Positions 1,513-28,363 of a stretch of 32,000 nt of DNA are shown in pieces. The translations under genes and the position numbers were made by a program. Source of the DNA: Thermoproteus sp. (lineage in GTDB: Archaea > Thermoproteota > Thermoprotei > Thermoproteales > Thermoproteaceae); contig JAWARJ010000001.1 in the NCBI GenBank assembly GCA_038893495.1, positions 1,011,824 to 1,043,823 of the forward strand, in the 5' to 3' direction. The notes under the pieces were generated by a model. The model made no database searches. It saw only the letters and a list, made by a program, of their open reading frames with translations, and was not told where the DNA came from. The stretch's first letter is position 1. The number at the start of each line of letters is the position of its first letter.

Positions 1513-4089
1513 CTAACGTCCGCGGGGCCTGGAGGGCCACCAGTTGTACTTAGCTAGGAGATTCATTATGGCCGGCACTAAGAAAGGCCTCACGATATAG
1601 GCGTCAAAGATTGCCGAAAATGCGACAGTCGCGCCTACTTGTTGGAGGACTGTGAGCTGGGACTGCACTATGGATAGAAAGGCCAGGGCCAGTATGAGCG
1701 CCGCGCCGGTGACTATGGGGCCTGTGGTCACTATGGCGGTCTTTATGGCGGCCCTATCGTCCAATCCTCTCTCTACCTCCTCTCTGATCCTGGTGACTAT
1801 AAATACGTCGTAGTCCGTCCCGACTGCAATCAGCAAACTGGTGAGGACTACCGGCTGGAGCCAGTAGGTGAGCTGGCCCCCTAAGATCTGAAACAATGCG
1901 ATGTTCAACGTGAGCCCCCAAACTAGAGACATCAAGACTGTCGCCACGAGTCTCAACGGCGTCAAGAGGCTCCTAAGCGCCACCATTAAAGTCAATATTA
2001 CAGTTAATAATACTATATATATTTGGAAATTCCAGAAATATAAGTATATATATGTATAATAGACGTGTTTCCAGCCGGCGTCTCCACCTATATACAACAA
2101 GCCGAATTTCCTCAAGGCCGTTAAATTGTTATATACATATAACAATTCATCTGACGTACTTGTTACAGATAACTTTAGTGAAATAATATAATAATTTTCT
2201 CTTGTAAATATAGTATAATTAGTATAGTATGGAAGTTTTGTTATATAGTTTATGACAGTGGAGTTAGGCCTTTGTGTAAAGACTAGATATGTCGTCGAGA
2301 GGGCAGTTACGTTCTTGAAGTAGGTCTGGGCTATATGGAGCGCCTTTTTGCTCTCTATATCTGGCATCGCCGATATGGGATTGGTAGTTATCTTCAAGTG
2401 AGATATAGCGAATAGGGCCAGCGCAAGCGTGGCGACGGTCGCTATCGCTATTATCGTTCTGGACCTCGAAAGGGCGATGTCTACAGCCTTGGCTAAGAAC
2501 TTAGAGCGGCCCTCGTGTAGCCTTATGTCTTCTATCCTTCTGGGCCAAAAAGCCTTGTCGTCTAGGAGGGTCAGCAACGCGGGCGTTGCGGTGAAGGCCG
2601 TCGTTAACACCAACAAGACTGCCAGCGCCAGCGTCAGCCCTATAGTCTGCATGAAGGGCAGTAGCGAAAAGCCGAAGCTACCCAAGGCGAGGCCTGCGAC
2701 TATCGCGCTAGTCAGTATTGCACGCTTGCCGAAACTCAAGACGGTGGAAATCGCCTCGTCGGGCCCCGCCCCTCTATTCCTCTCCTCCGCGTATCTGCCC
2801 AACATCAAGAGGTTGTAGTCCACGCCTAGGGCGAACACTACAGGCGCCGCTATGTAGACCGAAAGGTAGTATGGAGCTATATACGGCGAGATCAAATAGA
2901 CGAGCCCCAGTAGCGCCAGATACGAAAGCCCGACTTCCGCCAAAACCAACAGAGGCGCCACTATCGTGCCGAAGACGAAGAGCAGTATCGCCAACATAAC
3001 TATGGAGGTGGTCTTGTCTATCTCAGGCACTTCTGAAGTCACTATATCCGTAAATTGGGACATAAGCACATCGGTCGACACGGGGACCGCCCAGCTGTAA
3101 TTAAGCCGGGGGGCCCCGCTACCGTTAACTATCACCAATGCGTACTGGTCGCCGTAGAGCAACTGTCTGGCTTGAGTTATTGTGTACATGGTCGGTGGTG
3201 GGTATTCCGTCGTTAAGTTCTGTAGGAGGGCCTCCTTAAACGCGGCGAGGGCCTCGTCGGTCCTATTTACACATAGGATGTAGGGTAGGTAGGGCCTTAG
3301 CTCCGGCGGGAGCTTTGAGGAGAGCTGTAGGAATATGTATTTCTCCACCCCTAGCTCTGTGATGTTTTCGGCGAGACCTATTAGGGACGAATTGAGCCTA
3401 GTGGAGAGAATCCTTTCGGCTATTAGATCTATAGAGCTCTGCGAGGCCCAATTCCTCCATGTTATATTTTGTAGCAACCAACTCAAATTGCCGTATGCCC
3501 TATCTGCGGCTAATCTAATCGCCGTGTCTACGTCGTAGTACCTAGAGTAGTTTCTGTAGTACTCCAAAAAGCGCTCGGTCTGGGGCGTCGATATGTTGAA
3601 TAGGGTGGCTCCATATGTGGCGTATAGGAGCGCCGTCGCGTTGTTACGCGCCGTCTCGTAGGCCTCCTTTAGTTCATCTAGGAGTTTGCACTGAGTATTT
3701 GTAACATTATAAATTCTATTTAAATTATTAAAGAAATAGTTTGTTATATTATTTATTGTATTATTAATTTTATTCCAATATATTTTTTGTGCAGTATATT
3801 GTATAGTGAGTGGCGAAATTATATCATATCCTTCCGAGGACAGCGTTTTGTTCAGCTCGCTTAGTCTGTCCTGTAGGTCGGGACCGTAGACTAATATAAA
3901 TGTTATACTATTATTAGATGTAGATGTATTATTTATTATTTTATTTACTATATTTGGTTTTACATTTTTCGGCATAAGTTTTGATTCTGAATAAACAAGA
4001 ACTCCAAATACTTTGCCCGAATGTATTGCCAGATAGGAGTAGGTAGCCAGCCACAAGGCCAGCAGGGCGTAGGCGAGGAGCTTATTCAC
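1513..4089 (-). CDS. MMPL/RND-superfamily membrane exporter
   Basis: 858-aa ORF with a GTG start. It has an N-terminal TM (LLAYALLALWLATYSYLAI), then a ~330-aa N-X-S/T-rich extracytoplasmic domain, then two multi-TM blocks. Each block carries the MMPL hallmark (GVDYNLLMLGRYAEERNRG; GTDYDVFIVTRIREEVERG). Confidence 0.85.
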   Translation of the reverse strand: MNKLLAYALLALWLATYSYLAIHSGKVFGVLVYSESKLMPKNVKPNIVNKIINNTSTSNNSITFILVYGPDLQDRLSELNKTLSSEGYDIISPLTIQYTAQKIYWNKINNTINNITNYFFNNLNRIYNVTNTQCKLLDELKEAYETARNNATALLYATYGATLFNISTPQTERFLEYYRNYSRYYDVDTAIRLAADRAYGNLSWLLQNITWRNWASQSSIDLIAERILSTRLNSSLIGLAENITELGVEKYIFLQLSSKLPPELRPYLPYILCVNRTDEALAAFKEALLQNLTTEYPPPTMYTITQARQLLYGDQYALVIVNGSGAPRLNYSWAVPVSTDVLMSQFTDIVTSEVPEIDKTTSIVMLAILLFVFGTIVAPLLVLAEVGLSYLALLGLVYLISPYIAPYYLSVYIAAPVVFALGVDYNLLMLGRYAEERNRGAGPDEAISTVLSFGKRAILTSAIVAGLALGSFGFSLLPFMQTIGLTLALAVLLVLTTAFTATPALLTLLDDKAFWPRRIEDIRLHEGRSKFLAKAVDIALSRSRTIIAIATVATLALALFAISHLKITTNPISAMPDIESKKALHIAQTYFKNVTALSTTYLVFTQRPNSTVINYITKLPYYTNYTIFTRENYYIISLKLSVTSTSDELLYVYNNLTALRKFGLLYIGGDAGWKHVYYTYIYLYFWNFQIYIVLLTVILTLMVALRSLLTPLRLVATVLMSLVWGLTLNIALFQILGGQLTYWLQPVVLTSLLIAVGTDYDVFIVTRIREEVERGLDDRAAIKTAIVTTGPIVTGAALILALAFLSIVQSQLTVLQQVGATVAFSAIFDAYIVRPFLVPAIMNLLAKYNWWPSRPRGR

Positions 4090-4123: not shown

Positions 4124-5260
4124 GTGGCTTACCGCCATATCGCCATGTTGGCGCTCAGCGACTTAAAAGCCAGGAGGACGCGCTATGTGCTTCTGGCCGT
4201 AGTGATAGCCATAGGGGCAGCCTTAATGGTGGCCTTGAGCACCATAAGCGTCGGCGCCAAGATTTATGTACAGGACCAATTATATCAAATATTTCCAGCT
4301 GATATACTTATTTATTCTAACTCTATAGATATACCATATGCATTTATATCTACATTAAGGACATTGCCGTATGTACAAAACGCCGAGCCTGTAGTCATGT
4401 TAACAGGCTCTCTGGGCAATAAGACCGTAACCATATTGGGGGTTCCCCTCAGCGATATCGGCTATTTCGATGTGGAGCTACAAGAGGGGAGGCTACCTCA
4501 CGGCAGTGGCGAAGCCGTCGTGGAGGCTGCTCTCGGCTTACAGCCGGGGCAGACGGCGACCATAGCGGTGTATCAGAGCACCATCGCTCCTCCGACCGAC
4601 CTCAAGGTGACTGTGGTGGGCGTTATGAGCAACTTGTTGAAGGGCTTTATAGGGCCTATGAGCCTCAACCTAGTGGTCGTGCCGCTGGACTGGCTACAAC
4701 AACAATTGGGCCTCGGCGATTTTTACAACATGGTCTTTATAACTCTGAAGGATAAGTCGCTCATACAGCCGTTAGCCCAGGCTCTGAAGGCCAGATTTCC
4801 CCAGGCCGAGGTGTACACCCAACAGAGCGCTCTGTCCACTGTAGACAGGGTGTTCAACATGTTGAATATCTTCTTTTTGGTTATCGAGGTGATAGCGTTT
4901 TTGGCCGGCGCCTTGACTACCTTCACCGTGATGTCGATCACTGTGAGGGAGCGTATGGGGGAGGTGGCGTTGTTGAAGGCGACCGGCATTTCGGGTAGAG
5001 ATATAGCGCTGACCTTCATGTTGGAGGTATTAGTAGTGGGGCTCGTGGGCGGGATCGTCGGCGGCGTGGCCGGCTATTTCGGCGCCATAGGCGTCAAGTA
5101 TTTGTTGATAAAAGCGGGCTATTCCTTCGATGTGCCAATACCCTTCATGCCGTCCTTCTTTGCGCTCGGCGTAGTCCTCTCGTTGTTGGTAGCTCTGGCC
5201 GGCGCCTTGATGCCCATATATAGGGCCGTGTCGTTAAGGCCTCTTGAAATATTGAGATGA
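4124..5260 (+). CDS. ABC transporter permease, FtsX/MacB type
   Basis: 378 aa. TM1 (YVLLAVVIAIGAALMVALSTISV), a ~200-aa extracytoplasmic domain, then three C-terminal TMs (4-TM MacB/LolC/FtsX topology; VRERMGEVALLKATGISGRDI loop). The start is ambiguous: GTG 4124 or ATG 4145 (MLALSDLKARRTRY). It overlaps the downstream ATPase gene by 4 nt. Confidence 0.85.
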   Translation: MAYRHIAMLALSDLKARRTRYVLLAVVIAIGAALMVALSTISVGAKIYVQDQLYQIFPADILIYSNSIDIPYAFISTLRTLPYVQNAEPVVMLTGSLGNKTVTILGVPLSDIGYFDVELQEGRLPHGSGEAVVEAALGLQPGQTATIAVYQSTIAPPTDLKVTVVGVMSNLLKGFIGPMSLNLVVVPLDWLQQQLGLGDFYNMVFITLKDKSLIQPLAQALKARFPQAEVYTQQSALSTVDRVFNMLNIFFLVIEVIAFLAGALTTFTVMSITVRERMGEVALLKATGISGRDIALTFMLEVLVVGLVGGIVGGVAGYFGAIGVKYLLIKAGYSFDVPIPFMPSFFALGVVLSLLVALAGALMPIYRAVSLRPLEILR

Positions 5261-6021
5261 CCGACGCGGTATATCTAGAAAACGTACATAAGGTCTATCG
5301 GACCGCCGCAGGCGAGGTGCATGCGTTGAGGGGAGTTACTCTGAGGATACCTAAAGGCGCCATGGTGGCGTTCATGGGCCCCTCTGGGTCAGGCAAGACG
5401 ACGCTTTTGAATATCATATCGTCTCTCGACAAGCCCACCAGCGGGAAGGTGATAGTACTCGATACGGATGTGACGAAACTAGACGAAAAGAGCCTCGAGA
5501 GGTTCAGACTGCACAAAATAGGGTATTTATTCCAGTCGTACAACTTAGTGCCCTACCTCACGGCCTTGCAGAACGTCGAACTGCCTATGTTGGCCGCCGG
5601 TATGCCTAGAGATCTAGCTAAAGCTAAGGCCAAGTTGTTGTTGAGGCTGGTGGGCCTCGAGGACTCAGCCGACAGGCTCCCCATACAGCTGTCCGGCGGC
5701 ATGCAACAACGCGTAGCTCTGGCCCGCGCGCTCGCCAACAGCCCCGAGCTTTTAATACTAGACGAGCCTACCTCCAATATAGACCTAGACAATGCCTCTA
5801 TTATACTCAGCTTAATTCTGGCTCTCAATAAGATTTGGGGGAGCACAGTGCTGATAGCCACACACGACCCTGACGTGGCGGCCGTAGCGGACAAGGTCTA
5901 TACGGTCAGAGGGGGCTACGTGACGGACGGCGGCGTGCCTAAAGGCGAGATAAAAATCGATGTGGACAAGGCGAAAGAGATTTATGAAAAGATTAGGGCT
6001 ATAGATTCGGCATGGCAATAA
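5257..6021 (+). CDS. ABC transporter ATP-binding protein (MacB/LolD-like)
   Basis: Walker A GPSGSGKTT, signature LSGGMQQR, Walker B LLILDEPT, H-loop IATHD. Confidence 0.95.
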   Translation: MTDAVYLENVHKVYRTAAGEVHALRGVTLRIPKGAMVAFMGPSGSGKTTLLNIISSLDKPTSGKVIVLDTDVTKLDEKSLERFRLHKIGYLFQSYNLVPYLTALQNVELPMLAAGMPRDLAKAKAKLLLRLVGLEDSADRLPIQLSGGMQQRVALARALANSPELLILDEPTSNIDLDNASIILSLILALNKIWGSTVLIATHDPDVAAVADKVYTVRGGYVTDGGVPKGEIKIDVDKAKEIYEKIRAIDSAWQ

Positions 6022-7853
6022 GGGCAGTAATTTTGACGCTACTAATCGCGGCGTTGGCGTGGACCGCCGAGCCCACTCTGCTTATTTCATCTACGGCGTC
6101 CTATAGCGGCTCTATTTCTACTACATATCAATATATGTACTTCGTTGTGAATAATTCATCCAAGCCTCTAGAGTTTTTTGGACATATAGTGCCGCCCTAC
6201 GGAGCAAGTCTCATTTATGTGCCCGTCAACGGATCATATCCCCCTCCAATTGCTATATTCTACAATATAACCTATATTAATTCATCATTAATAAATAATA
6301 TATTGTACTGTAATAATAACTCTATTATAACAATTGATATAAAAATAAAAAATTATATGCCCTTCGAAGTCCCCGTAACTATATTAATCCAAAAGACGTC
6401 TGGCATAGACTTTATCAGCAACACTACGCCGTCGGGAATAGAATCCCTAGGGGGCTCTACGATATACCAATGGACCTTCCTCGTCGCGGACAGCCGCACG
6501 TTTTCGGTGTCCTATAGGATAAGAAATTTCGGCGATTTCGGCGCGGTCAGCCTGCCGCCTGTGGAGATCATATCCACTATAGATCTATCTGGCTATATCG
6601 ACCAGACAGAACAATCTATTGCTTTATTAAATAATACTTATAACTATCTGAATAATTTAACATATGCAGTAAATATATTCAATAATGTAGTATATAACAC
6701 TACAAATAATCTTGATAACCTAGTAAGGCTGTTAAATTTGAGCTCCACGGCATTTAGGGAGGGCGTCAGGGGGCTTAACGCCTCGCAGTATGTAATATAT
6801 GCGTTAAACGCCCAGCTGTCGGCGATGGCCTCCTCGTTAATGGGAGTAGCGTCTACTCTAAATAGAAGCCTCCTATTAGTCCAGTACGAATACGCCTATT
6901 TAGTGACTCTATCCAACGCTCTGGCGGCCCAGGCGACGGCCATAAACGCCTATGAGAATTCGCTCTCGACGACAGTAGCGACGCTTAACTCCATAGAGGG
7001 CAACCTCGCAACTATTTATTCTTCCCTACAAAATATAGAAAATTCTATCAATTCAATTTATTTAAATCTTTTATATCTAAAACAAAAAATTAATCAGATA
7101 AAATCTAATAATACATTAATTGAAAACGCTACTGAGGGACTAAACAGGCAACTAGATTACGCCATAGCGGTGGTACAGAGCGCCCAGTCGACTATAAGCT
7201 CGGCGGAGGCCTCCGTAGGAGCATTGATGAATATAGTCTCCAACACGAAAAACGCGCTTATAAAGATAGGCGGCCAGTTGGGAGAGGTCGAGGGCGTCCT
7301 CAACCAGACGGCCATAGCAACTAAACAGAACGCCACCGCCATGCTCGAAGAACTGCCGCCTGTGATACTTAACGCGTCGAAGGCCTTGACGTATATAGCC
7401 AATAATCTCACCTTGACGGCGAGCCAAGTGGGCCAGATGGCAGGCCCTATAAACAGCGGCGTCAAATACTTAACGTCGGCGGCATCTATGTTGTCGTATA
7501 CGGCCGACGAGATAGAGGCCGTCTCTAGCGCCATGAAGGGCGAACTGCCCTATATAGGTCTAGTAGATTCAATTGTTTCTAATTATAGATATAATATCAC
7601 AAAATCTATCCAAAGGTCTCAATATTTTATTTCTATAGCAAATACCTATAAAAATATATATGGAACTGGCTCTATTAGATATAGTATGACTATAAGCCTT
7701 CCCACAGCCGTAAACCCATCAAAGTTTATGTTTAATATAACCACGCCGGCCGCATCTCAGGGGAGCGGAGGCAATATAAATTCTATATATTTTCTATTAA
7801 TAATTATAATTGGTATATTAGCTACAATTTCTATTATATTGAAAATTAAATAA
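6012..7853 (+). CDS. Secreted, C-terminally membrane-anchored, N-glycosylation-sequon-rich helical-repeat surface protein (function unknown)
   Basis: 613 aa with an N-terminal signal-like segment (AVILTLLIAALAWTA) and a C-terminal TM (IYFLLIIIIGILATISIILKIK). I hand-counted about 20 N-X-S/T sequons. The central region is a long N/Q/S/A/L-rich helical segment. The start overlaps the ATPase stop by 10 nt, suggesting translational coupling. Confidence 0.75.
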   Translation: MAIRAVILTLLIAALAWTAEPTLLISSTASYSGSISTTYQYMYFVVNNSSKPLEFFGHIVPPYGASLIYVPVNGSYPPPIAIFYNITYINSSLINNILYCNNNSIITIDIKIKNYMPFEVPVTILIQKTSGIDFISNTTPSGIESLGGSTIYQWTFLVADSRTFSVSYRIRNFGDFGAVSLPPVEIISTIDLSGYIDQTEQSIALLNNTYNYLNNLTYAVNIFNNVVYNTTNNLDNLVRLLNLSSTAFREGVRGLNASQYVIYALNAQLSAMASSLMGVASTLNRSLLLVQYEYAYLVTLSNALAAQATAINAYENSLSTTVATLNSIEGNLATIYSSLQNIENSINSIYLNLLYLKQKINQIKSNNTLIENATEGLNRQLDYAIAVVQSAQSTISSAEASVGALMNIVSNTKNALIKIGGQLGEVEGVLNQTAIATKQNATAMLEELPPVILNASKALTYIANNLTLTASQVGQMAGPINSGVKYLTSAASMLSYTADEIEAVSSAMKGELPYIGLVDSIVSNYRYNITKSIQRSQYFISIANTYKNIYGTGSIRYSMTISLPTAVNPSKFMFNITTPAASQGSGGNINSIYFLLIIIIGILATISIILKIK

Positions 7854-7854
7854 T

Positions 7855-8037
7855 TCATTTAGTTTTAATTGTAATGTATTTAGCATAAATTGAGCAACCA
7901 GAGCCGCCGTTATTGCAGTACTTCTCCAACTGGCCTCTACTCGCCCTCCACTCTTCCGGCGGCATCAAGATGCACCTCACGCCGTCGGCTGTAGGTCTGT
8001 ACATGGGGCAACGCATGGCTATATATAATGGGGGCAA
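7855..8037 (-). CDS. Small Cys-containing hypothetical protein (uncertain)
   Basis: 60-aa ORF with a TTG start; an alternative ATG at 8016 gives MRCPMYRPTADGVRC...KYCNNGGSGC. It has four Cys and fills an otherwise empty 194-nt gap. There is no recognisable family and no clear promoter. Confidence 0.3.
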   Translation of the reverse strand: MPPLYIAMRCPMYRPTADGVRCILMPPEEWRASRGQLEKYCNNGGSGCSIYAKYITIKTK

Positions 8038-8047
8038 TTAAAGCTTC

Positions 8048-8599
8048 GTGGACGAGTGCGAAAAGGTAAATGAGCACATAGCGGATAGGGGCTTTAAGGT
8101 GGTCGAGAGGAGACGCGACTTCTTATACGCGGCGCTGGGCGGCCTGTACGTATCCTTTTGGTGTCCCGAGAGGAGCCACATATTCGACGTAGATCCCCTG
8201 GAGCTTGCGGAGGGCTTAAAGCTGTCCGCCAGCGATGTGCTAATAGTAGTCGCCTATAGGCCGTATCTGATAATAGACGAACTCCAGAGCGTTGTAGATA
8301 GGATACATAGATGGTATGGGAGGGACTTCGGCGTGAAAATCATAGGCGTTAACGCCTCCGACCTAGAGGCTGGGCTGGAGGAGGCGGTGGGCCACGCCAT
8401 GGCCTATAGGCCTTTCAAGATAGGGCAGGGCGTCGAGACGGGCGAGTTGTGTCCCAACTGTACGAAGTCGCCCCTGAGGATTTACGTCTCCGAGAGGCTC
8501 TTCTCGGCTAAATACAAGTCTATGGTGAGCCACCTGATATTCGCCTGCCCCTCCTGCGGCTTGAGGATCAGGAGAGTTGAAATGCTCAGCCAAATATAG
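8048..8599 (+). CDS. Hypothetical protein with C-terminal zinc ribbon
   Basis: 183 aa with a GTG start ~20-29 nt downstream of the TATA-like CTATATATAAT (8019-8029). The C-terminus has CPNC...CPSC (a four-Cys ribbon). Codon usage looks like the neighbouring genes. Confidence 0.6.
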   Translation: MDECEKVNEHIADRGFKVVERRRDFLYAALGGLYVSFWCPERSHIFDVDPLELAEGLKLSASDVLIVVAYRPYLIIDELQSVVDRIHRWYGRDFGVKIIGVNASDLEAGLEEAVGHAMAYRPFKIGQGVETGELCPNCTKSPLRIYVSERLFSAKYKSMVSHLIFACPSCGLRIRRVEMLSQI

Positions 8600-9515
8600 G
8601 CTCCGCCTTGGGGTCTATTGCGGAGATCACAGAGTCGAGTATGCCTGGGAGCTCCGCCTTGGTGGCCCTCTTCTTAATCACGGTCACCGACGCGCCTCTA
8701 TGGCCCCCGCCGCTTCCGCCTAGAAGCGAGCCTATTCTAGCCGCCATGGCGCCGACATCCACGCGTTGAGACCTATAGACTATCCTGACCTCGTCTTTAT
8801 GGCGCGACGCGACTATCGCCACGTCGCACCCTACAGACACTAACATGGAGGCCACATCGGCCTCGTACGCATCGACATGGGTGGCACAGACGAGGCCAAT
8901 GGAGGTCTTGTAGGCCTTTAATCTAATCAGCGACTTCAGTTTGGCGATCTTCAATGAGGGGTCTTCTTCCTGCCTGCCCACATAACGCTCCAGCGGGCCT
9001 ATTTCCGAGACGGCGTAGGCAAGAGCCCTCAACGTCCTGTCGTCGGCCCTCAGGAGTTTCGCGGTGTCGAAATAGACGCCCAGCGCCGCGGCCACGAGGG
9101 AGTTCTTGCTGGGCTTCACTCCTGCCTCTAGGGCTGTCTCCAGAGCCATCTCGCTACAACTAGGCCTTTCGTCTCTCACCCCTGGAAGCGCATCGCCTAC
9201 GGCGTGGTGGTCGAATAGGAGGACCAAGGCGTCCTTTACCTCCGGGACCTGGGACAGAGAGGCCACGTCGGCTAGAACTACGGCCTCCGTCCCCTGGGGG
9301 ATCTCCTCGCGGCATTCCGCATACGGTCTGGCCTCCTTAGAGGCGCCTTCAGGGCACACCACTACGGCCTCATAGCCGAGGCCCGCCAAGACGTCTTTAA
9401 GCACCTCTGCGCACCCCAAGGCGTCTAGGTCCGCATGTCTGTGAGTCACTATGGCCACCTTACGTCGATTCCCCAAGGCGTCTAAGAGCCTCCTTAAGTA
9501 CACGCCTCTTGTCAT
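8586..9515 (-). CDS. DHH/DHHA1-family phosphoesterase (NrnA/RecJ-like)
   Basis: Motif I THRHADLDALG, an intact DHH motif (LLFDHHAVGD), and the DHHA1 motif GGSGGGHRGA. 309 aa. Confidence 0.85.
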   Translation of the reverse strand: MTRGVYLRRLLDALGNRRKVAIVTHRHADLDALGCAEVLKDVLAGLGYEAVVVCPEGASKEARPYAECREEIPQGTEAVVLADVASLSQVPEVKDALVLLFDHHAVGDALPGVRDERPSCSEMALETALEAGVKPSKNSLVAAALGVYFDTAKLLRADDRTLRALAYAVSEIGPLERYVGRQEEDPSLKIAKLKSLIRLKAYKTSIGLVCATHVDAYEADVASMLVSVGCDVAIVASRHKDEVRIVYRSQRVDVGAMAARIGSLLGGSGGGHRGASVTVIKKRATKAELPGILDSVISAIDPKAEPIFG

Positions 9516-9804
9516 CGCCCGGCTTTATAACGCCTTCTTTAATCATATCGGCAACAACGACGCCCAGCTCGGCGGCCCTCTCCACCACTCGGTTCAGCCT
9601 CTCGTCCTCCACGAGGGGGCTAGCGCCGGCGTCTACCGACACCTCTACCGAGTCGCCCCTAAAGGCCACTTCTATTTCCGCCTCGAAGAAGTCGTCGCCC
9701 AGCTCTCTAGATATGTATTCGTATATTATTTCTGTGATGTATTCAGCTATATCAGCCTCCTCCCTTAGCGGGGGCTGTTGGTTGCGCTCCTCCCGCTCCC
9801 CCAC
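9460..9804 (-). CDS. Small acidic conserved hypothetical protein (possible DUF3194-like superoperon member)
   Basis: 114 aa, with GTG as the only canonical start. It is acidic, with a protein-like alpha/beta pattern. The family assignment rests on position next to pfdB and on memory only. Confidence 0.55.
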   Translation of the reverse strand: MGEREERNQQPPLREEADIAEYITEIIYEYISRELGDDFFEAEIEVAFRGDSVEVSVDAGASPLVEDERLNRVVERAAELGVVVADMIKEGVIKPGDDKRRVLKEALRRLGEST

Positions 9805-10150: not shown

Positions 10151-10192
10151 GGAGGTAAGACGACCCCCATTAATATGTTTTCCAGGACGCCG

Positions 10193-10414
10193 CTATAGCC
10201 TCCTTACCCCCTCCACGACGTATAGAACTCTAAATATCGTGTTGACGAGACTACGCGCGCTTGTCACATCTGCCGCATACCCCACTATCCTCAATTTGTT
10301 CCCTCTAGCCAAGACTTTAATCCTCCCTCTACGAAACGCCACCTCCCTCTCCAAGGCTTTGAACACCTTCTCTACCACTTCGTCTTTATCTACTTCAACC
10401 GATATCTCGTACAT
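10193..10414 (-). CDS. pcc1: KEOPS subunit Pcc1-like protein
   Basis: 73 aa. The pattern ...KLRIVGYAADVTSARSLVNTIFRVLYVVEGV resembles the Pcc1 'A.D..ALR..vNs.lR.i' C-terminal helix. It sits between the Brix and pfdB genes, as in other archaea. Confidence 0.6.
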   Translation of the reverse strand: MYEISVEVDKDEVVEKVFKALEREVAFRRGRIKVLARGNKLRIVGYAADVTSARSLVNTIFRVLYVVEGVRRL

Positions 10415-20715: not shown

Positions 20716-20829
20716 AATATTATATTTGTATATAATTCTTATTCATTATAAATATAATAAAAATTTTATATATATCCAGAGGGGCGGTATATGCAATAAA
20801 TAGTTATATATAGGTCTCAAGATAACGTC

Positions 20830-21837
20830 ATGGAAGGCGAGGTCCGTAAGGTTCAGCTCACGGGCGGAGCCACCCTCATAGTCAGCCTCCCTAAGGAGTG
20901 GGCTCGACGAACCAACTTATCGCCGGGAGATGAAGTCCTCATAGTGCCTCAGCCCGACAACACGCTGGTTTTAATACCGCGGAAGTTGGGCAAGCGCGCC
21001 TCTCTGACTGTGGAGTTGAATGTAGACGACAAAATGTCCGTTGAGGAGCTAGAGAAGGTCTTCATGGCGGTCTATATAGCTGGCGCCGAGGTCATATCCG
21101 TTAAGTTCGCCCCTGGGGCTACCCAATATAGGAAGCACCTAAAGGACTTCGTCAGGAGGAGGGTTATAGATATGGAGATAACAGAGGAGTCCAGCGACAG
21201 ACTCGTCATACAGGCGATGGTCTCCGCCACGGAGCTTGCAGTAAAAGACGTCACGGTCAAGATGTTGAAGCTGGCCGACAACATGTTGGCGGACCTCATA
21301 AGAGGTCTAGAGGCCGACAACATGGAGCTCCTAAAGGACGTAGCCGAGAGGGACGACGAGGTAGACAGACTGTACTGGCTTATTGAGCGCCAACTCAAAA
21401 GGGCGGCCATGTCCCGCTACATAATGTTGGAGTTGAAGGTGGAGGATCCCCGCGATCTAGTTGAATACACAATAATAGCCAAATCCATAGAGAGGATTGC
21501 CGACCACATATGTAAAATAGCCTATATCAACCAGGAGGAGAAGATAGACTTGAGGGTCGTCAAGCCCATCTTGGAGAGGGCGATTGAATATATGGGAGCC
21601 GTGCTGGACGCCCTTAGCGGTAGCCTGGACGACGCGAAGCTGACGTGGCTCTACAGGGAGGTGAGCGAGTGGGCGCTAAAAATACGTAAAGAGGGCATAC
21701 CGTCAGATCCGGCTACCTCTCTAGCTAAAGACAGCGCCATAAGGATAAATGAATACATAGGTGACATCTTGGAATCTCTCCTACATATAAGGCTTAAGAC
21801 CTTCCAAAAGTTGGGCGAAGGGGCTCAACTACAATAG
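20830..21837 (+). CDS. AbrB/SpoVT-domain + PhoU-domain phosphate uptake regulator homologue
   Basis: N-terminal swapped-hairpin domain (VQLTGGATLIVSLPKEWARRTNLSPGDEV) and a PhoU-like helical repeat (ERDDEVDRLYWLIERQ; IAKSIERIADHICKIA). Confidence 0.85.
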   Translation: MEGEVRKVQLTGGATLIVSLPKEWARRTNLSPGDEVLIVPQPDNTLVLIPRKLGKRASLTVELNVDDKMSVEELEKVFMAVYIAGAEVISVKFAPGATQYRKHLKDFVRRRVIDMEITEESSDRLVIQAMVSATELAVKDVTVKMLKLADNMLADLIRGLEADNMELLKDVAERDDEVDRLYWLIERQLKRAAMSRYIMLELKVEDPRDLVEYTIIAKSIERIADHICKIAYINQEEKIDLRVVKPILERAIEYMGAVLDALSGSLDDAKLTWLYREVSEWALKIRKEGIPSDPATSLAKDSAIRINEYIGDILESLLHIRLKTFQKLGEGAQLQ

Positions 21838-22318
21838 AGATAATATCCTCAAAGAAGTAATGAAATATTTCTTTATATATAACACGACCCAACACGTTGA
21901 GGGCCTCCTCCACGAAGTCGGCCCTGCCCAAGCTACTAAACGTTAGTACCAACACCTCGGGCCTGTAGGCGGAGGCCCACCTCAACACATTATTAACGAG
22001 ACCGTAGTCGTATATAGCGACGGCCTCCCAATCTGTAGGCGGCTCCTCCGGAGGTAGATACGGGAGGTTGCTCACCACGAGGTCGGCTCTCGATATGGCC
22101 GAAAGCCCGTGGGTGCAGACGACATCATGTCTTTTACATGTAGAACATGCATATGGATTTATGTCTACGGCGACTACCTCCCTACAGAGTTCTCTCAACT
22201 TGTCGGAAAGGATACACGAGCCCGCCCCTACATCAACACATATATTGAAATTTCTATTTAGTTTAGAAAGTACCTTTAAAGTTAATATGCTATCTTCTCC
22301 CGGACTATATATATACAT
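21794..22318 (-). CDS. HemK/Mtq2-like SAM-dependent methyltransferase
   Basis: IYSPGEDSILTL N-terminus, SAM motif VDVGAGSCIL, and NLPY (an NPPY variant). 174 aa. Its 3' end converges on and overlaps the PhoU-like gene by 44 nt. Confidence 0.75.
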   Translation of the reverse strand: MYIYSPGEDSILTLKVLSKLNRNFNICVDVGAGSCILSDKLRELCREVVAVDINPYACSTCKRHDVVCTHGLSAISRADLVVSNLPYLPPEEPPTDWEAVAIYDYGLVNNVLRWASAYRPEVLVLTFSSLGRADFVEEALNVLGRVIYKEIFHYFFEDIISIVVEPLRPTFGRS

Positions 22319-23123
22319 GCAACACTAAATAAATTAATATAGGAAATACAAACATGCCGGATAGATATGCTAGCAACGTAGTTTCGTATTTAGAGCCTAC
22401 GTCGTATGACGTCGTAGTGGCGAGAGTGCCGCACGTCAAGAGCAACAACACGAACTTGAGGGCATAGTCGACGTTGTAGTTCCCTATAGAGGCGGAAATC
22501 GGGGGGTATATCAACAACGGAAATAAGCCTAGGATTGTATGTACTATATCGACTCTTCTACCAGATAGAAAATAAACTAATAATAATATTGATATTAATG
22601 ATATTATAGAGCTAAGAATAATAATAAAAATGTTATTAAACATATCAGTATATATAACGCCCACCAGGGCCTCTCTCGAGAGGTATACAGAGACGATCCA
22701 CGTGGCGAGGAGCAACGCCGCCGTTATTTTCAGATGAGGCGACGCCAACATGGCCACGATGAATGGCCTCAAGCCTAGGACCTCAAGCACTGAGAGCTCT
22801 CTCAGAGGCCCCACCGAGGACAGAATGGAGGCGATCTTGGCGCCTTTATCTGTGAGCTCAACTACGTTGCCGTCCCTCCTCACGAGGCCCAAGGCCTCGA
22901 GCGCCGAGATGTCGAATAGCAGAGCTGACGCCGAAACGCCCAGCCTATCTTTAAGTCTATTCAGCGTGGCGGGGCCCTCGCTGTAGAGCAACAACAAGAC
23001 CTCCCGCCGTCTGCCATAAGCGACTTTATATATTAAATTCTCCACGACGTAGGGGAAGCCCGTGTTTTTAAGGGTATGCCGATTGCCGCCAATGGAGTAA
23101 TCTTTAAAAAAGGGTATTAGCAT
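22305..23123 (-). CDS. Winged-HTH (ArsR-like) domain fused to a polytopic membrane domain
   Basis: RREVLLLLYSEGPATLNRLKDRLGVSASALLFDISALEALGLVRRDG is a wHTH. It is followed by about five hydrophobic helices. The exact start is uncertain because the alba TATA lies within its first codons. Confidence 0.65.
   Translation of the reverse strand: MLIPFFKDYSIGGNRHTLKNTGFPYVVENLIYKVAYGRRREVLLLLYSEGPATLNRLKDRLGVSASALLFDISALEALGLVRRDGNVVELTDKGAKIASILSSVGPLRELSVLEVLGLRPFIVAMLASPHLKITAALLLATWIVSVYLSREALVGVIYTDMFNNIFIIILSSIISLISILLLVYFLSGRRVDIVHTILGLFPLLIYPPISASIGNYNVDYALKFVLLLLTCGTLATTTSYDVGSKYETTLLAYLSGMFVFPILIYLVLHVYI
23102..23113 (+). promoter_or_regulatory. alba TATA box
   Basis: CTTTAAAAAAGG is centred ~25 nt upstream of the alba ATG (23132), suggesting a leaderless mRNA. 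It lies inside the first codons of the divergent ORF 22305..23123. Confidence 0.5.
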
Positions 23124-23851: not shown

Positions 23852-25775
<1,924 letters not shown>

Positions 25776-25782
25776 CGATGCG

Positions 25783-25790
25783 AATATAAA
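25783..25790 (+). promoter_or_regulatory. TATA-like element upstream of the 58-aa ORF and arcadin-4
   Basis: AATATAAA lies ~23 nt upstream of GTG 25810, in the 34-nt gap after arcadin-2. Confidence 0.4.
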
Positions 25791-25809
25791 CTGCGGTTCA
25801 TATATTGTT

Positions 25810-25986
25810 GTGGATCTCTTTAAGATAGTAGAGGAAGAAGTGAGGAGGGGCCTTGAGGGCTCCGACGTTGAGATAGTCCTGAGCCTAATAGAGGCGTACA
25901 GGTCCTCGGGCCCGAAGGGCGCTAGGGACAAACTGAGAGAAATACTCTCACGATGGGGAGTAGATGTGGGCGATATCGAGGATTAA
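25810..25986 (+). CDS. Untracked 58-aa ORF inside the Arcade cluster
   Basis: Manual translation gives VDLFKIVEEEVRRGLEGSDVEIVLSLIEAYRSSGPKGARDKLREILSRWGVDVGDIED*. The GTG is ~23 nt from the centre of the TATA-like AATATAAA (25783-25790). Codon usage is typical (AGG, ATA, GAG). It overlaps the arcadin-4 start by 23 nt and is below the track's length cut-off. Confidence 0.45.
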   Translation: MDLFKIVEEEVRRGLEGSDVEIVLSLIEAYRSSGPKGARDKLREILSRWGVDVGDIED

Positions 25987-28363
25987 ACTAAAGGACTTCA
26001 AGGTATATTCAGGCGAGTACGAACTCGTATTGTCGCCAGTAACCGCCATAGTGGGTAGAGTCGGCGCCGGCAAGTCCTCTCTACTTCAAGCAATAGAGTT
26101 CGCCCTATTTGGAAGGGAGATGGAGACCAGACAGAGGATAGCGAAGCTCGTCGATTTGATAAACATCAATTCGGACAGCGCCTGGGTCGAGCTGGAACTG
26201 ACCGACGGCACCGAGAAGGCCGTAATTAGGCGGAGCCTAAACAGGAGGGGACGTAGCCGCCTAGAGTTGAGGATAAGGGGAGAGAAGCTTTCGGATCTAG
26301 ACGCCGAGGAGAAGCTCAAAGAGATCTCAGGCATCAGTAGCGAGGACTACGATAGAGTAATATATATATCACACTACGCGCTAGAGGACTTCATCCATGG
26401 CGACAAGATAAGAAGGACCTCGCTAATAGATAAAATACTTCAGATCGATATACTAGACAATATACAAAAGTTAATAAATAAATCTATAAAGAACTTATTA
26501 GAAGAAACTGAAAAAATTAGGATAAAAATAGCATATTATGAAAAGTATAGAGATATATTAGAGAAATATGGAAGCATATCCAAGATAAAAGAAGTAAAGA
26601 CATCTTTAGAGAGAGAATTAGAGGAAATTTCTAGACAAGAAAATAATCTATTAACTAGATATAAACAACTTCTAGAAGATAGAAAAAAATACATCGATAA
26701 AATATCAAGGCTACAAGATAAAATAACGGCGTACTACAAGGCCAAATCGGAGCTAGAACTCCTTGAAGAATATGGATATAGCTACAACACAGAGCTAGCC
26801 CAGATAGACGAACTGAAGGACAGATTTCTCGGAATCTTAGCCGAATTCGAACATATAGTGAGCCCGCAGATAGTAGAGGCTATCTCCAAGGAGTCCGACC
26901 CTGCCAGACTGGCTGAGCTCTTTAACGACGCCTATAAGGAGCTCCTAAAGGCCAAGTCGTCTCTAAGCGAACTTTCCTCCTCAATAGAGGCACAACGAAA
27001 TATGTTGCAAACTAAACTAAATGAGTTAAATATAGAAATATCTAAGGTGAGAGCCAAATTAGAACAACTAGATGTCCTATATAAAAAATTTAAGGACTTA
27101 GAATCTAAATACGGGACTATTGAGGAGGTGAGGAGGAAGTTGGAGGCGGCGAGAAGTAGGGCGCAGGAACTGGAGAGGAAGACGCGCTACATCTCGTCTT
27201 TGAGGTTCATACTGTCTTACGCCCTAGAGGCCGGCGTCGAGACGTGTCCTATTTGTGGATCTAAATTGGATAGGAAGGCCGCGTCGTCTAGGCTTGAAGA
27301 GCTGGAGAGAGAATATTCGCAAGAGCTCGCCCAGTTCGAAGAGGCGAAGGGAGAATTGGAGGCGCTAGAGGGGGCATATAGGGATATGGAGTCTCTGCTG
27401 AGCTCCGTCTCTGAGTACTTAAAGGCCAGGGAGGAGCTAGAGAGGCTGAGCGCCGAGGCCGAAAAGATAAAGACGAAACTGGACCAGGCCGCCAAATCGT
27501 CGGCTCAAATATCTCGCCGCCTCTCGCTCCTCTCGGGCTTCTTGGAAGAGGTCACGCCGGAGGTGGTCGAGGAGGTCGTCAAGAGGTACAATAAGGCCCT
27601 CCGGGTCAAACAGCTCCGCGAGGTCTTGGAGTCGGTAGAGCTCGAGTTGAGAAGTCTTGGCGTAAGCGAGGCCGTTTTGGAGTTAGAGGAGGAGTTCAGA
27701 AGGGTCTCTGAAGATCTGGACAAAATAAGGAGGAGGAAGGCCGATATACATAACGAATTGGCGAGGCTATCGGAGGTGCTGGCCAATGTGGACGAGGAGT
27801 TCGAAACCCTTAAGGCGAAATTAGAGAGATTTATTTATGTCCATAATAGACTCAATGATATTTATAATAAATTAAATGTAATAAAGCAGAATGTAAGATT
27901 GAAGGTAATTCAAGAGATACAAGACGAGTTGTGGAACAACTTCCTCAAGATATATCCCTATAAGGACATCACGGCGGTGCGGCTGGCCCTTAGAGACAAC
28001 GCATATGAGGTAGAGGCCGTTACGGCTGACGGCGCCACTATAGGCATATCGAAGTTGAGCGACGGACAGCGGCTGGCGGTAGCCCTCTCGTTGGTTATAT
28101 CTATGCGTAAGCTGTTAGGCCCCAAGCTGGGCTTTCTGCTACTGGACGACCCCCTGCCGTATGTAGACCCCAATGTGCGCTCGGCGCTGGCCGGCCTGAT
28201 AGCGTCTTTAAGCAAGGAGTACCAAGTGGTGGTGGCGACTCAGACCGAAGACTTGCCCAGAGAGATAGCCTCCAACGGCGTCGACGTAGCTGTAGTGGAG
28301 CTGTCTAGGGCCGGGAACAAGCCCGAAGTGACGACTAAACATATATTTGGGAGAAAAGATTAG
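25964..28363 (+). CDS. rkd-4: Arcadin-4 candidate: SMC/Rad50-like coiled-coil ATPase
   Basis: 799 aa. N-terminal Walker A GRVGAGKSSLLQAIEFALFG, a long K/E/L coiled coil, a central CPICG, and C-terminal signature LSDGQRLAVALSL with Walker B FLLLDDPL. No mre11/herA/nurA genes are adjacent. Confidence 0.75.
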   Translation: MWAISRIKLKDFKVYSGEYELVLSPVTAIVGRVGAGKSSLLQAIEFALFGREMETRQRIAKLVDLININSDSAWVELELTDGTEKAVIRRSLNRRGRSRLELRIRGEKLSDLDAEEKLKEISGISSEDYDRVIYISHYALEDFIHGDKIRRTSLIDKILQIDILDNIQKLINKSIKNLLEETEKIRIKIAYYEKYRDILEKYGSISKIKEVKTSLERELEEISRQENNLLTRYKQLLEDRKKYIDKISRLQDKITAYYKAKSELELLEEYGYSYNTELAQIDELKDRFLGILAEFEHIVSPQIVEAISKESDPARLAELFNDAYKELLKAKSSLSELSSSIEAQRNMLQTKLNELNIEISKVRAKLEQLDVLYKKFKDLESKYGTIEEVRRKLEAARSRAQELERKTRYISSLRFILSYALEAGVETCPICGSKLDRKAASSRLEELEREYSQELAQFEEAKGELEALEGAYRDMESLLSSVSEYLKAREELERLSAEAEKIKTKLDQAAKSSAQISRRLSLLSGFLEEVTPEVVEEVVKRYNKALRVKQLREVLESVELELRSLGVSEAVLELEEEFRRVSEDLDKIRRRKADIHNELARLSEVLANVDEEFETLKAKLERFIYVHNRLNDIYNKLNVIKQNVRLKVIQEIQDELWNNFLKIYPYKDITAVRLALRDNAYEVEAVTADGATIGISKLSDGQRLAVALSLVISMRKLLGPKLGFLLLDDPLPYVDPNVRSALAGLIASLSKEYQVVVATQTEDLPREIASNGVDVAVVELSRAGNKPEVTTKHIFGRKD

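Follow-up and report, generated by a model that had tools for sequence, protein, structure and literature searches.

The window analysed here, the whole stretch of 32,000 nt at positions 1,011,824-1,043,823 of contig JAWARJ010000001.1, is part of the 1.995 Mb genome of a Thermoproteus sp. (GCA_038893495.1, hereafter G000). Pfam confirms genes for an MMPL transporter, a MacB/FtsX-type permease, a PF01877 protein, a ThiN-domain protein, Topo VI-B, Topo VI-A, an SMC_N-like protein, an actin-like protein and a radical SAM protein, and a search of the whole window at Rfam gathering thresholds returned no match to a structured RNA gene. The 100-nt G+C profile of this region falls sharply to 0.13-0.33 at the places where a first-pass annotation, made by eye, had listed short AT-rich islands. 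A log-odds segmenter (AT 0.78 versus 0.44, score at least 12) called 24 islands with a G+C of 0.09-0.25 (Table 1), recovering all 22 of those listed with edges within a few bases, apart from two left edges at 16791 (formerly 16815) and 22507 (formerly 22561), and adding the islands at 21827-21882 and 31598-31685. The reading frame stays open across the islands in every host ORF, as had been claimed, and the description of the islands as in-frame and within genes mostly holds, but those at 20659-20775 and 7773-7891 extend past the 3' end of the gene into the spacer. The interval 7892-15648, the actin-like gene and the radical SAM gene all came out of the segmentation free of islands, in agreement with the earlier remark that the exosome/proteasome stretch at 8.0-15.6 kb, the crenactin gene and the radical SAM gene are island-free.

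Table 1. AT-rich islands of the window, with the G+C of the aligned segments in three other Thermoproteus genomes (G005, G007, G002).
Island	Strand	Location	G+C	GC3, island vs rest of gene	G005	G007	G002
1985-2061	-	MMPL transporter gene (1513-4089)	0.16	0.20 vs 0.58	0.35	0.21	
2121-2253	-	MMPL gene	0.20	0.14 vs 0.60	0.21	0.20	
3696-3829	-	MMPL gene	0.16	0.11 vs 0.60	0.21	0.24	
3892-4014	-	MMPL gene, N-terminal part	0.20	0.05 vs 0.60	0.24	0.27	
4259-4358	+	MacB/FtsX-type permease gene (4124-5260)	0.24	0.12 vs 0.70	0.20	0.26	
6248-6358	+	Envelope-like gene 6012-7853 (no Pfam hit)	0.14	0.16 vs 0.48	0.14	0.15	
6610-6739	+	Gene 6012-7853	0.21	0.16 vs 0.48	0.18	0.18	
7010-7126	+	Gene 6012-7853	0.15	0.08 vs 0.48	0.25	0.17	
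7551-7695	+	Gene 6012-7853	0.23	0.12 vs 0.49	0.27	0.31	
7773-7891	+	3' end of gene 6012-7853 and 38 nt of spacer	0.13		0.13	0.49	
15649-15752	+	PF01877 (UPF0201-type) gene 15445-15921	0.12	0.06 vs 0.59	0.12	0.12	0.12
16791-16923	-	ORF 16079-17200	0.22	0.20 vs 0.70	0.17	0.16	
17446-17521	+	ThiN-domain gene	0.14	0.08 vs 0.57	0.17	0.11	0.12
17679-17789	+	ThiN-domain gene	0.19	0.19 vs 0.58	0.14	0.20	0.12
18437-18524	+	Topo VI-B gene (18026-19612)	0.18	0.10 vs 0.72			0.36 (intermediate)
20659-20775	+	Last 57 nt of Topo VI-A gene and spacer upstream of gene 20830	0.09		0.12	0.13	0.14
21827-21882	-	Short; 3' end of gene 21794-22318, overlapping end of gene 20830-21837	0.20		0.23	0.46	0.33
22229-22355	-	Spans junction of genes 21794-22318 and 22305-23123	0.24		0.32	0.29	0.28
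22507-22657	-	HTH membrane protein gene 22305-23123	0.22	0.18 vs 0.66	0.19	0.13	0.19
25257-25324	+	Gene 25155-25775	0.25		0.21	0.44	0.19
26424-26726	+	Long; SMC_N-like gene 25964-28363	0.23	0.18 vs 0.63	0.22	0.40	0.28
26998-27111	+	SMC_N-like gene	0.25		0.25	0.58	
27818-27922	+	SMC_N-like gene	0.22		0.30	0.21	
31598-31685	.	Almost entirely intergenic, between radical SAM gene end (31592) and ORF start (31676); composition as in coding islands	0.24				

This fine-scale, two-state base composition is real. Across the whole genome the segmenter found 528 islands, where a globally shuffled sequence yielded 5 and one shuffled in 1-kb blocks yielded 99; all coding sequences together held 271, against about 48 when synonymous codons were resampled from the genome pool and about 156 when they were shuffled within each gene. 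The coding sequences of the window hold 24 islands; redrawing synonymous codons from genome usage gives an expectation of 5.9 (at most 11 in 200 trials), and the within-gene shuffle one of 15.2 (at most 20 in 200 trials). The first-pass annotation had regarded a profile no more heterogeneous than codon-shuffled controls as fatal to its claim; the observed profile is far more heterogeneous. Its further assertion that the signal lies at the nucleotide level stands, with the reservation that the amino-acid sequence alone predicts about 6 of the 24 window islands, roughly a quarter.

The compositional shift extends to every class of site. GC1, GC2 and GC3 are 0.29, 0.21 and 0.20 in islands compared with 0.57, 0.43 and 0.72 outside, while four-fold degenerate sites have a G+C of 0.20 inside and 0.75 outside. 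The reported switch in synonymous codons is borne out by the frequencies inside and outside islands (TTA 0.46 and 0.07, AAA 0.74 and 0.26, GAA 0.75 and 0.20, AGA 0.67 and 0.19), as is the accompanying shift in amino acids, with N, I, Y and K increased 2-3.4 fold and F 1.5 fold; the synonymous sites of the islands thus differ strongly from those of their flanks, the opposite of the second outcome that had been set against the claim. Coding islands (G+C 0.229) and non-coding islands (0.227) have the same composition, whereas non-island non-coding DNA stands at 0.547 and the genome background at 0.55-0.57. The relation between the codon positions is switch-like: in windows of 25 codons GC3 is about 0.7 where GC12 exceeds 0.4, falls to 0.16-0.36 where GC12 is below 0.30, and is bimodal between. 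At the four-fold sites of the coding strand A exceeds T in islands, unlike what simple C>T and G>A change from the flank composition would give.

The islands were followed in the closest relative (G005, a sister species with a multi-contig assembly), in two more distant Thermoproteus genomes (G007 and G002) and in a Pyrobaculum (G010). All 47 alignable islands are AT-rich in G005, and the orthologous segment is also called an island in 30 of 47 cases in G007 and 37 of 56 in G002; for about a third of the islands the state differs between congeners. In the Pyrobaculum only 3 of 58 orthologous segments are AT-rich, with a GC3 of 0.57 and a GC12 of 0.39 at those positions, and samples from Pyrobaculum, Vulcanisaeta and Caldivirga, genera whose orthologues had been proposed as a check, contain peptide segments of the AT-codon type without the collapse of GC3. 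For the Topo VI-B island, for example, orthologues of the genus Pyrobaculum have a clearly homologous, gap-free peptide written in GC-richer codons. Differences in state are also apparent within the window. The island at 7773-7891 is AT-rich in G005 but GC-normal in G007, so that its state differs between species; for that at 25257-25324 the peptide is largely conserved and the change of state in G007 is therefore mostly synonymous; and the G007 counterpart of 26998-27111 is a homologous peptide with K/R, N/D and I/V swaps in GC-rich codons. Alignments of orthologues across islands contain 1-7% gaps, and amino-acid identity in the island and in the rest of the gene is 0.71 and 0.75, 0.61 and 0.65, and 0.44 and 0.49 in three comparisons. 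The islands are parts of ordinary genes and spacers that have passed down by vertical descent, with about 22% G+C against a background of about 56%.

How such stretches evolve can be read from the substitutions. With islands defined only in the outgroup G007, divergence between G000 and G005 at third positions is 0.244 in islands versus 0.262 in flanks and at all sites 0.119 versus 0.119, so that no locally raised substitution rate, as in a hypermutation patch, is seen in this comparison. Between G000 and G007 third positions in the flanks are about 80% saturated (0.599 differences per A/T site, with a GC3 there of 0.75); despite this near-saturation most islands hold a GC3 of 0.1-0.3 in both genomes, and the distribution among orthologues is bimodal. 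Changes from A/T to T/A amount to 0.121 for each A/T site in islands, double the 0.058 found outside. In lineage-specific islands the net flux from G/C to A/T comprises about 70% transitions and 30% transversions, the same as in flanks, and a search for a deamination signature or a strand- or base-specific spectrum in these islands found none, C>T and G>A both contributing. Per-site rates from G/C to A/T are about twofold up and those from A/T to G/C about twofold down only on the assumption of stationary composition; these changes are absent from parsimony-polarised counts, a mismatch which we provisionally attribute to the common-to-rare parsimony artefact and to regression to the mean. On the same assumption, and in view of the bimodal retention of islands at near-saturated divergence, substitution inside islands would tend to an equilibrium G+C different from that outside. 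Taken together, the comparisons show that islands originate in place through directional change from G/C to A/T affecting each of the three codon positions, that this origin is favoured where the peptide permits AT-rich codons and in weakly constrained genes, and that established islands hold their composition while their sequence turns over at a normal rate.

Coding islands have a preferred length, and some classes of gene carry more islands than others. The pooled coding islands (n = 348) are most often 110-130 bp long, with a tail that declines roughly exponentially and a sharp drop above about 150 bp, and intergenic islands form a separate mode at 40-60 bp. The peaked length is an ambiguous observation, being equally expected if the islands were footprints of selected elements. 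The chance that a G000 window holds an island is 0% where the GC12 of its G010 orthologue exceeds 0.6 and climbs to 12% where it is below 0.35. Islands occur more often in genes of low GC3 (36% versus 9%), in less conserved genes (34% versus 12%) and in membrane proteins (31% versus 15%), they avoid conserved operons, and they are clustered, with 130 gaps shorter than 300 nt where 40 are expected. No motif, 10-bp periodicity or positional preference along genes was found in them.

Whether islands are present at all depends on the lineage. A 400-kb sample of G002 has low-GC segments in its coding sequence at a density of 19 per 100 kb, compared with about one coding island per 100 kb in a Vulcanisaeta sample and one Thermofilum sample (G038), and none in 100-kb samples of putative Aeropyrum pernix, Pyrolobus fumarii, two Pyrobaculum and a second Thermofilum (G039). 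Since other high-GC hyperthermophiles have no or nearly no islands in these samples, heat and high G+C are insufficient and a lineage-specific factor is needed.

One physical property that may single out the islands is duplex stability. A nearest-neighbour bubble estimate for naked, relaxed DNA, with literature parameters and supercoiling, polyamines and chromatin left aside, gives a predicted critical length for duplex opening of 76-146 bp at 86-90 °C in 0.3 M salt. At 88 °C, 1% of islands of 40-70 bp are predicted to be open, as against 76-89% of those of at least 100 bp, and for length-matched controls of normal G+C the predicted open fraction is 0% throughout 86-90 °C in every salt condition tried. 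For naked relaxed DNA the predicted open fraction of islands spans 2%-99% over 86-90 °C and 0.15-0.6 M salt, and on this model the islands would sit at the threshold of duplex opening near 86-90 °C.

The reading that we favour, if tentatively, is that the islands represent a second compositional state of the DNA itself, which arises in place, maintains itself, is specific to a lineage and is possibly coupled to local duplex stability. The force that holds the remainder of the genome GC-rich would cease to act within an island, and AT-biased substitution would reach an equilibrium of its own. The switch between the states may be tied to duplex stability at the growth temperature, such that, near 86-90 °C, breathing or opening is predicted once a patch exceeds a critical length of about 80-150 bp, and this would alter the regime of damage, repair or recombination, locking in the AT-rich state by positive feedback.

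Several other explanations have to be set against this. That the islands are artefacts of assembly or sequencing is suggested by lengths close to those of short reads and has a negligible probability; it is refuted by open frames and by the same islands at orthologous positions in four separate assemblies (G000, G005, G007 and G002). Gene conversion, in which short patches are copied from a donor of very low G+C, would account for the sharp edges, for a length of about 100 bp resembling that of conversion tracts and for the islands that differ between congeners. This suggestion of the first-pass annotation is nevertheless highly improbable and largely refuted, because the islands lack indels, their amino-acid identity is only 4-5 points below that in the remainder of the gene, their synonymous sites show no excess divergence from the closest relative, and they are inherited across the genus, all alignable ones being shared with G005 and most with G007 and G002; in addition the peptide of the Topo VI-B island agrees with orthologues from within the family. 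No thermophile is known to have coding DNA of such low G+C (9-25%), and the islands fall below any known thermophilic donor. They are also mutually dissimilar (10 of 139,128 pairs similar at E<1e-4), which, with the absence of indels relative to orthologues, gives no sign of a mobile element, MITE or repeat family. The earlier proposal of rare-codon pause clusters, which would here be under selection to slow the ribosome, for instance to help proteins fold or enter the membrane during synthesis, and would have the amino-acid shift as a secondary effect, fits the use of the genome's minority synonymous codons, the enrichment in membrane proteins and the conservation of positions within the genus, but is very unlikely. 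Non-coding islands share the composition and the lineage-specific pattern, the shift at codon positions 1 and 2 equals that at position 3 in strength, islands cross gene junctions and spacers, and Pyrobaculum orthologues have similar peptides without the codon switch, while ARAGORN, in a noisy prediction, finds tRNAs for the A-ending codons (Leu-UAA, Arg-UCU, Glu-UUC and Gln-UUG).

There remain functions exerted by the DNA. A role as promoters, whether internal, antisense or serving a downstream gene from within the 3' end of the upstream gene, is unlikely to explain the islands as a whole. Among 224 coding islands, 41 end no more than 60 nt from the gene end and 29 begin no more than 60 nt from the gene start, against an estimated 18 or so each under uniform placement; the intergenic islands have their own 40-60 bp mode with TTTAAA and TAATTA in mild excess; and the islands at 20659-20775 and 7773-7891 lie directly upstream of the next gene, a position which suggests that the former includes that gene's promoter. 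Against this, internal islands, evenly spread along genes, make up about 70% of the coding ones, coding islands show no enrichment of an oriented motif, and the islands are three to four times longer than the archaeal BRE/TATA core promoter. For the short intergenic mode and the islands at gene ends a promoter reading is plausible from sequence and position. A serious alternative, though less likely than not, is that the islands are selected DNA-level elements of about 120 bp superimposed on coding sequence and held in place by selection for AT-richness, for example sites that open with heat to unwind the duplex or buffer supercoils, chromatin boundaries, histone-free sites, or tracts read by their composition by a lineage-specific nucleoid protein. 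Such elements would fit the peaked length of coding islands with its sharp fall above about 150 bp, the positions kept across the genus while the sequence turns over, the equal composition of coding and non-coding islands, the predicted opening threshold and, if the reader is a lineage-specific protein, the restricted taxonomic spread. However, the islands are clustered and not spaced, show no motif, 10-bp periodicity or positional preference along genes, differ in state between congeners in about a third of cases, and are biased to less conserved, low-GC3 and membrane-protein genes while avoiding conserved operons, a bias which resembles tolerance and not placement; nor do we know of a protein that binds them. 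The DNA-level hypothesis of the first-pass annotation survives by elimination, with some support from the preferred length and the opening estimate, and with no specific function (promoter, chromatin or topoisomerase loading) shown.

We agree with the earlier judgement that no standard type of feature explains the islands, and found no published description of two-state patches of about 120 bases. The nearest formal parallel is the isochore: Fryxell and Zuckerkandl reportedly proposed in 2000 a feedback between melting and deamination for compositional domains of this type. As there, two states are seen equally in all codon positions and in non-coding DNA, amino-acid usage follows DNA composition, and the proposed feedback links AT-richness, duplex breathing and G/C-to-A/T change. 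The scale is different, isochores extending over at least 100 kb and the islands over about 120 bp inside single genes; domains of tens to hundreds of kb are not what we observe, the mode being that given above with few islands longer than 150 bp. The islands furthermore belong to a prokaryotic hyperthermophile, have edges sharp to about 10 nt and show no transition-specific signature. Rare-codon clusters likewise consist of consecutive minority synonymous codons whose positions are shared by close relatives, whereas the islands shift codon positions 1 and 2 and non-coding DNA as well, run for 30-45 codons and leave no shift at orthologous positions in the sister genus. DNA unwinding elements and nucleosome-depleted AT-rich regions of archaea, which occur at origins and promoters, are also short AT-rich tracts in which composition and easy opening would count for more than a motif, and the islands are about the size of a few histone-dimer footprints; they differ in being mostly intragenic, present in hundreds and clustered in weakly constrained genes.

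Acquired AT-rich islands subject to xenogeneic silencing by H-NS, Lsr2, MvaT or Rok, as described for example in PMC3923964 and PMC4466236, similarly carry AT-rich, promoter-like strings in a GC-richer genome, for which tolerance or silencing would be needed. These targets are foreign and kilobases long, while the islands are about 0.1 kb, in-frame and in vertically inherited core genes (Topo VI-B, ThiN, SMC-like), without indels or excess divergence. We know of no archaeal silencer for such islands. Within the genus itself, the genome of Thermoproteus tenax has three long stretches where G+C is low (<47%), a heterogeneity which also lacks evidence of a single low-GC donor, but these stretches are multi-gene and moderate in G+C, and intragenic patches of about 100 bp and about 20% G+C are not mentioned (PMC3189178).

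If the islands are indeed a second, self-maintaining state of the DNA, a factor specific to Thermoproteus and some Pyrobaculum would have to decide whether switching occurs. Since composition is held despite the turnover of sequence, the genome is a two-state mosaic, in which the state belongs to the DNA and not to translation.

The G+C profile of the window (100 nt) falls repeatedly from 0.5-0.6 to 0.13-0.33 where the first-pass annotation had placed 22 AT-rich islands by eye, and a log-odds segmenter (AT 0.78 inside versus 0.44 outside, score at least 12) resolves 24 islands there, with G+C of 0.09-0.25. All 22 are recovered, their edges agreeing within a few bases except for two left edges, and two further islands lie at 21827-21882 and 31598-31685. 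As had been maintained, every host frame stays open through every island; the gene identities proposed from the sequence agree with Pfam for MMPL, MacB/FtsX, PF01877, ThiN, Topo VI-B and Topo VI-A, as well as for the SMC_N-like, actin-like and radical SAM genes; and the regions described as free of islands (7.9-15.6 kb, the actin-like gene and the radical SAM gene) contain none according to the segmenter. The crenactin/arcadin-type cluster named in the first-pass annotation corresponds to 23861-28363 of the window: the actin-like gene (23861-25168), itself free of islands, precedes a 206-aa ORF without Pfam match and then a 799-aa SMC_N-like ORF, and these two downstream genes carry four islands. 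The ThiN gene was missed by a simple gene caller because of its 5' overlap with the opposite-strand ORF 16079-17200. The 5' ends of this ORF (minus strand) and of the one at 17085-17978 (plus strand) share about 115 nt, and in at least one of the two ORFs an N-terminal extension is probably over-called.

The window occupies positions 1,011,824-1,043,823 of a single contig of 1,995,394 bp (G+C 0.56), and the whole genome (hereafter G000) contains 528 islands, as against 5 after a global shuffle and 99 after shuffling in 1-kb blocks. In all coding sequence 271 islands compare with about 48 when synonymous codons are redrawn from genome usage and about 156 when they are shuffled within each gene. 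The excess likewise persists in the coding sequence of the window under the codon-shuffled null that the first-pass annotation had proposed, 24 islands standing against 5.9 expected with the genome-usage redraw (maximum 11 in 200 trials) and 15.2 with the within-gene shuffle (maximum 20 in 200 trials). The density of islands along the genome is very uneven, with 26-38 per 50 kb in some bins and 2-8 in others; island-dense 50-kb bins occur at about 0.70, 1.00, 1.40, 1.65 and 1.95 Mb.

The compositional change affects all codon positions, GC1/GC2/GC3 being 0.29/0.21/0.20 in islands versus 0.57/0.43/0.72 outside, and G+C at four-fold sites being 0.20 versus 0.75. The switch in codon choice reported earlier is general, since within islands all synonymous families move to A- or T-ending codons. 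When 25-codon windows are picked on positions 1+2 alone, such that third positions are excluded from the choice, GC3 remains at about 0.7 down to a GC12 (G+C at positions 1+2) of about 0.4, is 0.16-0.36 below a GC12 of 0.30, and is bimodal between. Of the 528 islands, 224 lie wholly within coding sequence and 196 are intergenic, the other 108 being mixed; the G+C of coding islands is 0.229 and that of non-coding islands 0.227, with 0.547 for non-coding DNA outside islands, and the transition at island edges is abrupt, taking about 10 nt. The two-state composition is a property of the DNA. On the coding strand, four-fold sites of islands genome-wide favour A (0.45) over T (0.35), and those of the flanks C (0.43) over G (0.32); this asymmetry between strands is not what simple transitions starting from the flank composition would give.

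Orthologues were taken as reciprocal best hits and compared by pairwise protein alignments. G005, the closest relative, matches G000 at about 88% identity and is collinear across the whole window, and all 47 of the alignable G000 islands are AT-rich there (G+C at most 0.35). In the more distant Thermoproteus-type genomes G007 and G002 and in G010, from the sister genus (see table), gaps of 1-7% indicate that the islands are not insertions, a point which the first-pass annotation had left to orthologue alignment. GC3 of the orthologous segments is bimodal in G007 and G002; in G010 it is 0.57, with a GC12 of 0.39. The peptide encoded by the Topo VI-B island has a clear gap-free homologue in orthologues of the Pyrobaculum genus, written in GC-richer codons. 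Similarly, the peptide of 25257-25324 is almost unchanged among the relatives, GC-ending codons being used in G007 (0.52) and AT-ending ones in G000, G005 and G002 (0.24-0.32), while at 26998-27111 the difference between G007 (0.61) and G000/G005 (0.30-0.31) consists of synonymous changes together with K/R, N/D and I/V swaps. The islands are therefore homologous, vertically inherited sequence in another compositional state, one in which congeners can differ. In G002:C1:643835-645397 and G043:C1:1223903-1225438 the six-frame matches to Topo VI-B each read through one TAG, probably where the match overruns the stop codon.

With respect to the substitution regime, islands were defined in the outgroup G007 alone, a choice that favours neither G000 nor G005 when these two are compared. 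The divergence at all sites is 0.119 in both islands and flanks, and at third positions 0.244 in islands versus 0.262 in flanks; since islands diverge as their flanks do, there has been neither hypermutation nor recent import. Under the assumption of stationary composition, G/C-to-A/T changes per G/C site are about twice as frequent inside (0.348) as outside (0.165), A/T-to-G/C changes per A/T site about half as frequent (0.156 versus 0.352), and non-coding islands follow the same pattern as coding ones; these two ratios are not independent measurements, because they follow from equal flux and differing composition. A/T-to-T/A changes per A/T site are twice as frequent inside islands. Between G000 and G007 the third positions of the flanks have reached about 80% saturation, with 0.599 differences per A/T site at a GC3 of 0.75; most islands nevertheless have a GC3 of 0.1-0.3 in both genomes, the rest lying near the flank value and not in between. 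We take this retention across near-saturated flanks, together with the raised A/T-to-T/A frequency, to be independent evidence of maintenance. In lineage-specific islands about 70% of the net G/C-to-A/T flux consists of transitions, the same as in flanks. Parsimony-polarised counts give similar per-site rates inside and outside islands, with an apparent excess of A/T-to-G/C changes inside and of G/C-to-A/T changes outside; we read these counts as biased by common-to-rare misinference and regression to the mean, and they remain a weakness of the maintenance case.

The length of coding islands, pooled from three Thermoproteus-type genomes (348 islands) and robust to the drop-off setting of the segmenter, is peaked, with its main mode at 110-130 bp and a minor one at 50-60 bp; islands longer than 150 bp are few. 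Three AT-rich segments of G000 (455, 545 and 802 bp) fall outside this main distribution and may be something different, for example whole small genes or spacers. Within genes, islands show no favoured position apart from a modest surplus at gene ends, and they are clustered, 130 gaps being shorter than 300 nt where 40 are expected. The chance of a G000 window being an island rises steadily from 0% where the GC12 of the G010 orthologue exceeds 0.6 to 12% where it is below 0.35. Islands also occur more often in genes whose background GC3 is low (36% versus 9%), in less conserved genes (34% versus 12%) and in multi-pass membrane proteins (31% versus 15%). They do not constitute a repeat family, just 10 pairs among 139,128 being alike. 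A search of 6-mers and 8-mers against a second-order Markov model gave weak excesses and no strong motif, AA/TT autocorrelation gave no 10-bp signal, 30-bp quantisation of island lengths or gaps was not evident, and sense-strand T-runs were not avoided beyond what composition predicts.

The distribution among lineages was surveyed as 75-nt coding segments of at most 25% G+C, the expectation being derived from the amino-acid sequence.

Low-G+C coding segments per 100 kb of coding sequence, and orthologues of G000 islands. G000 was surveyed over its whole genome, G007, G002 and G010 over 400 kb each and the others over 100 kb, for which densities are rough; species names are presumed.
Genome	Observed	Expected	Gaps	Amino-acid identity, island / rest of gene	Also island
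G000, holding the window	9.6	0.6
G007, T. uzoniensis	10.2	0.2	4%	0.71 / 0.75	30/47
G002, T. tenax	19.1	1.4	1%	0.61 / 0.65	37/56
G010, Pyrobaculum arsenaticum	2.0	0	7%	0.44 / 0.49	3/58
P. calidifontis	9.1	0
P. islandicum	11.5	4.6
P. neutrophilum	0	0
P. aerophilum	0	0.2
Vulcanisaeta	1.1	0
Caldivirga	4.6	4.1
Thermofilum-type G038	1.2	0.2
Thermofilum-type G039	0	0
Aeropyrum pernix, G+C 0.60	0	0
Pyrolobus fumarii, G+C 0.59	0	0

High G+C combined with extreme heat is clearly not sufficient for islands, and in samples without them peptide segments of AT-rich-codon type retain a normal GC3. A sample (300-400 kb) of G099, a genome of family f32 (1,394,664 bp, G+C 0.47), yielded 4.8 segments per 100 kb of coding sequence versus 0 expected, such that the phenomenon may be sporadic outside the Thermoproteus family. 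Two candidate lineage factors were rejected. DprA (PF02481), flagged together with ComF as unusual for archaea in the T. tenax genome paper (PMC3189178), was found by a family-wide search in G002, G008 and 4 of the 15 Pyrobaculum-genus genomes and not in the island-bearing G000 or G007, and thus bears no relation to islands. NucS/EndoMS (PF01939) matches strongly in almost every family member searched, G000 and G007 included; G002, which has the highest island density, gives a sub-cut-off match alone (E 6e-4), and this exception does not track island density.

The islands are real features of the DNA that arose in place, are inherited and are very probably maintained; they are also specific to the lineage, of a preferred size, and placed by preference where the protein tolerates them. 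Their recurrence at orthologous positions in four assemblies excludes an assembly artefact, and the lack of gaps against orthologues and of island-island similarity excludes insertions or mobile elements. RNA genes find no Rfam match in the window, within islands or elsewhere, conversion from a low-GC donor is contradicted by divergence and amino-acid identity, hypermutation by the flank-like divergence and pure protein-level selection by direct test. Promoter function is plausible for the gene-end minority and the short intergenic class alone.

Bubble opening was estimated by a nearest-neighbour calculation with literature parameters for SantaLucia stacking and for the Poland-Scheraga loop cost. 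At Thermoproteus growth temperatures islands are predicted to lie at the threshold of opening (86-90 °C), from 2% to 99% being open over 0.15-0.6 M salt, an estimate for naked, relaxed DNA which may not match the cell; length-matched GC-normal controls are all predicted to stay closed over those temperatures, whatever the salt condition used. The critical length for island-like composition is estimated at 76-146 bp, and the predicted open fraction at 88 °C in 0.3 M salt is 1% for islands of 40-70 bp versus 76-89% for those of at least 100 bp. The likeliest mechanism, we infer, would be a local escape of the islands from whatever keeps the genome GC-rich; past a critical patch length, a feedback from duplex stability would lock in the AT-rich state. 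The main rival is that the AT patches are themselves selected elements of about 120 bp, a reading which the peaked length and long conservation fit as well as they fit local escape; the clustering in weakly constrained genes favours local escape. That the islands form a selected, composition-defined class which opens at growth temperature, is laid over coding sequence and serves chromosome mechanics in Thermoproteus and some Pyrobaculum, for instance as sinks for supercoils, as sites where reverse gyrase or topoisomerase loads, or as chromatin boundaries, would be in keeping with the predicted opening and seems to us rather unlikely.

A full-text literature search, whose coverage is incomplete and does not prove novelty, returned no description of intragenic patches of about 100 bp in these organisms, and the low-G+C reports of the T. 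tenax genome paper are limited to three multi-gene regions below 47% (PMC3189178). The nearest concept is that of isochore-like domains with a melting-deamination feedback; the islands, however, are three orders of magnitude smaller, lie inside genes and occur in a prokaryote. In these genomes they will distort codon-adaptation indices and dN/dS estimates, and will mislead gene finders as well as detectors of horizontal transfer that rely on composition. Should they be selected openable elements, they would give archaeal chromosomes a dual-use sequence of a new kind and amount to a second, physical code constraining codon and amino-acid choice in hundreds of genes. A DNA-level force can override synonymous and amino-acid choice over about 40 codons at once, even in the essential Topo VI-B, and can do so for as long as the genus has existed. 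With hundreds of matched on/off patches, and congeners that differ in state at the same site, the islands provide a natural experiment that bears on the old question of what sets G+C in hyperthermophiles, and on a possible feedback from duplex stability to mutation, repair or recombination.
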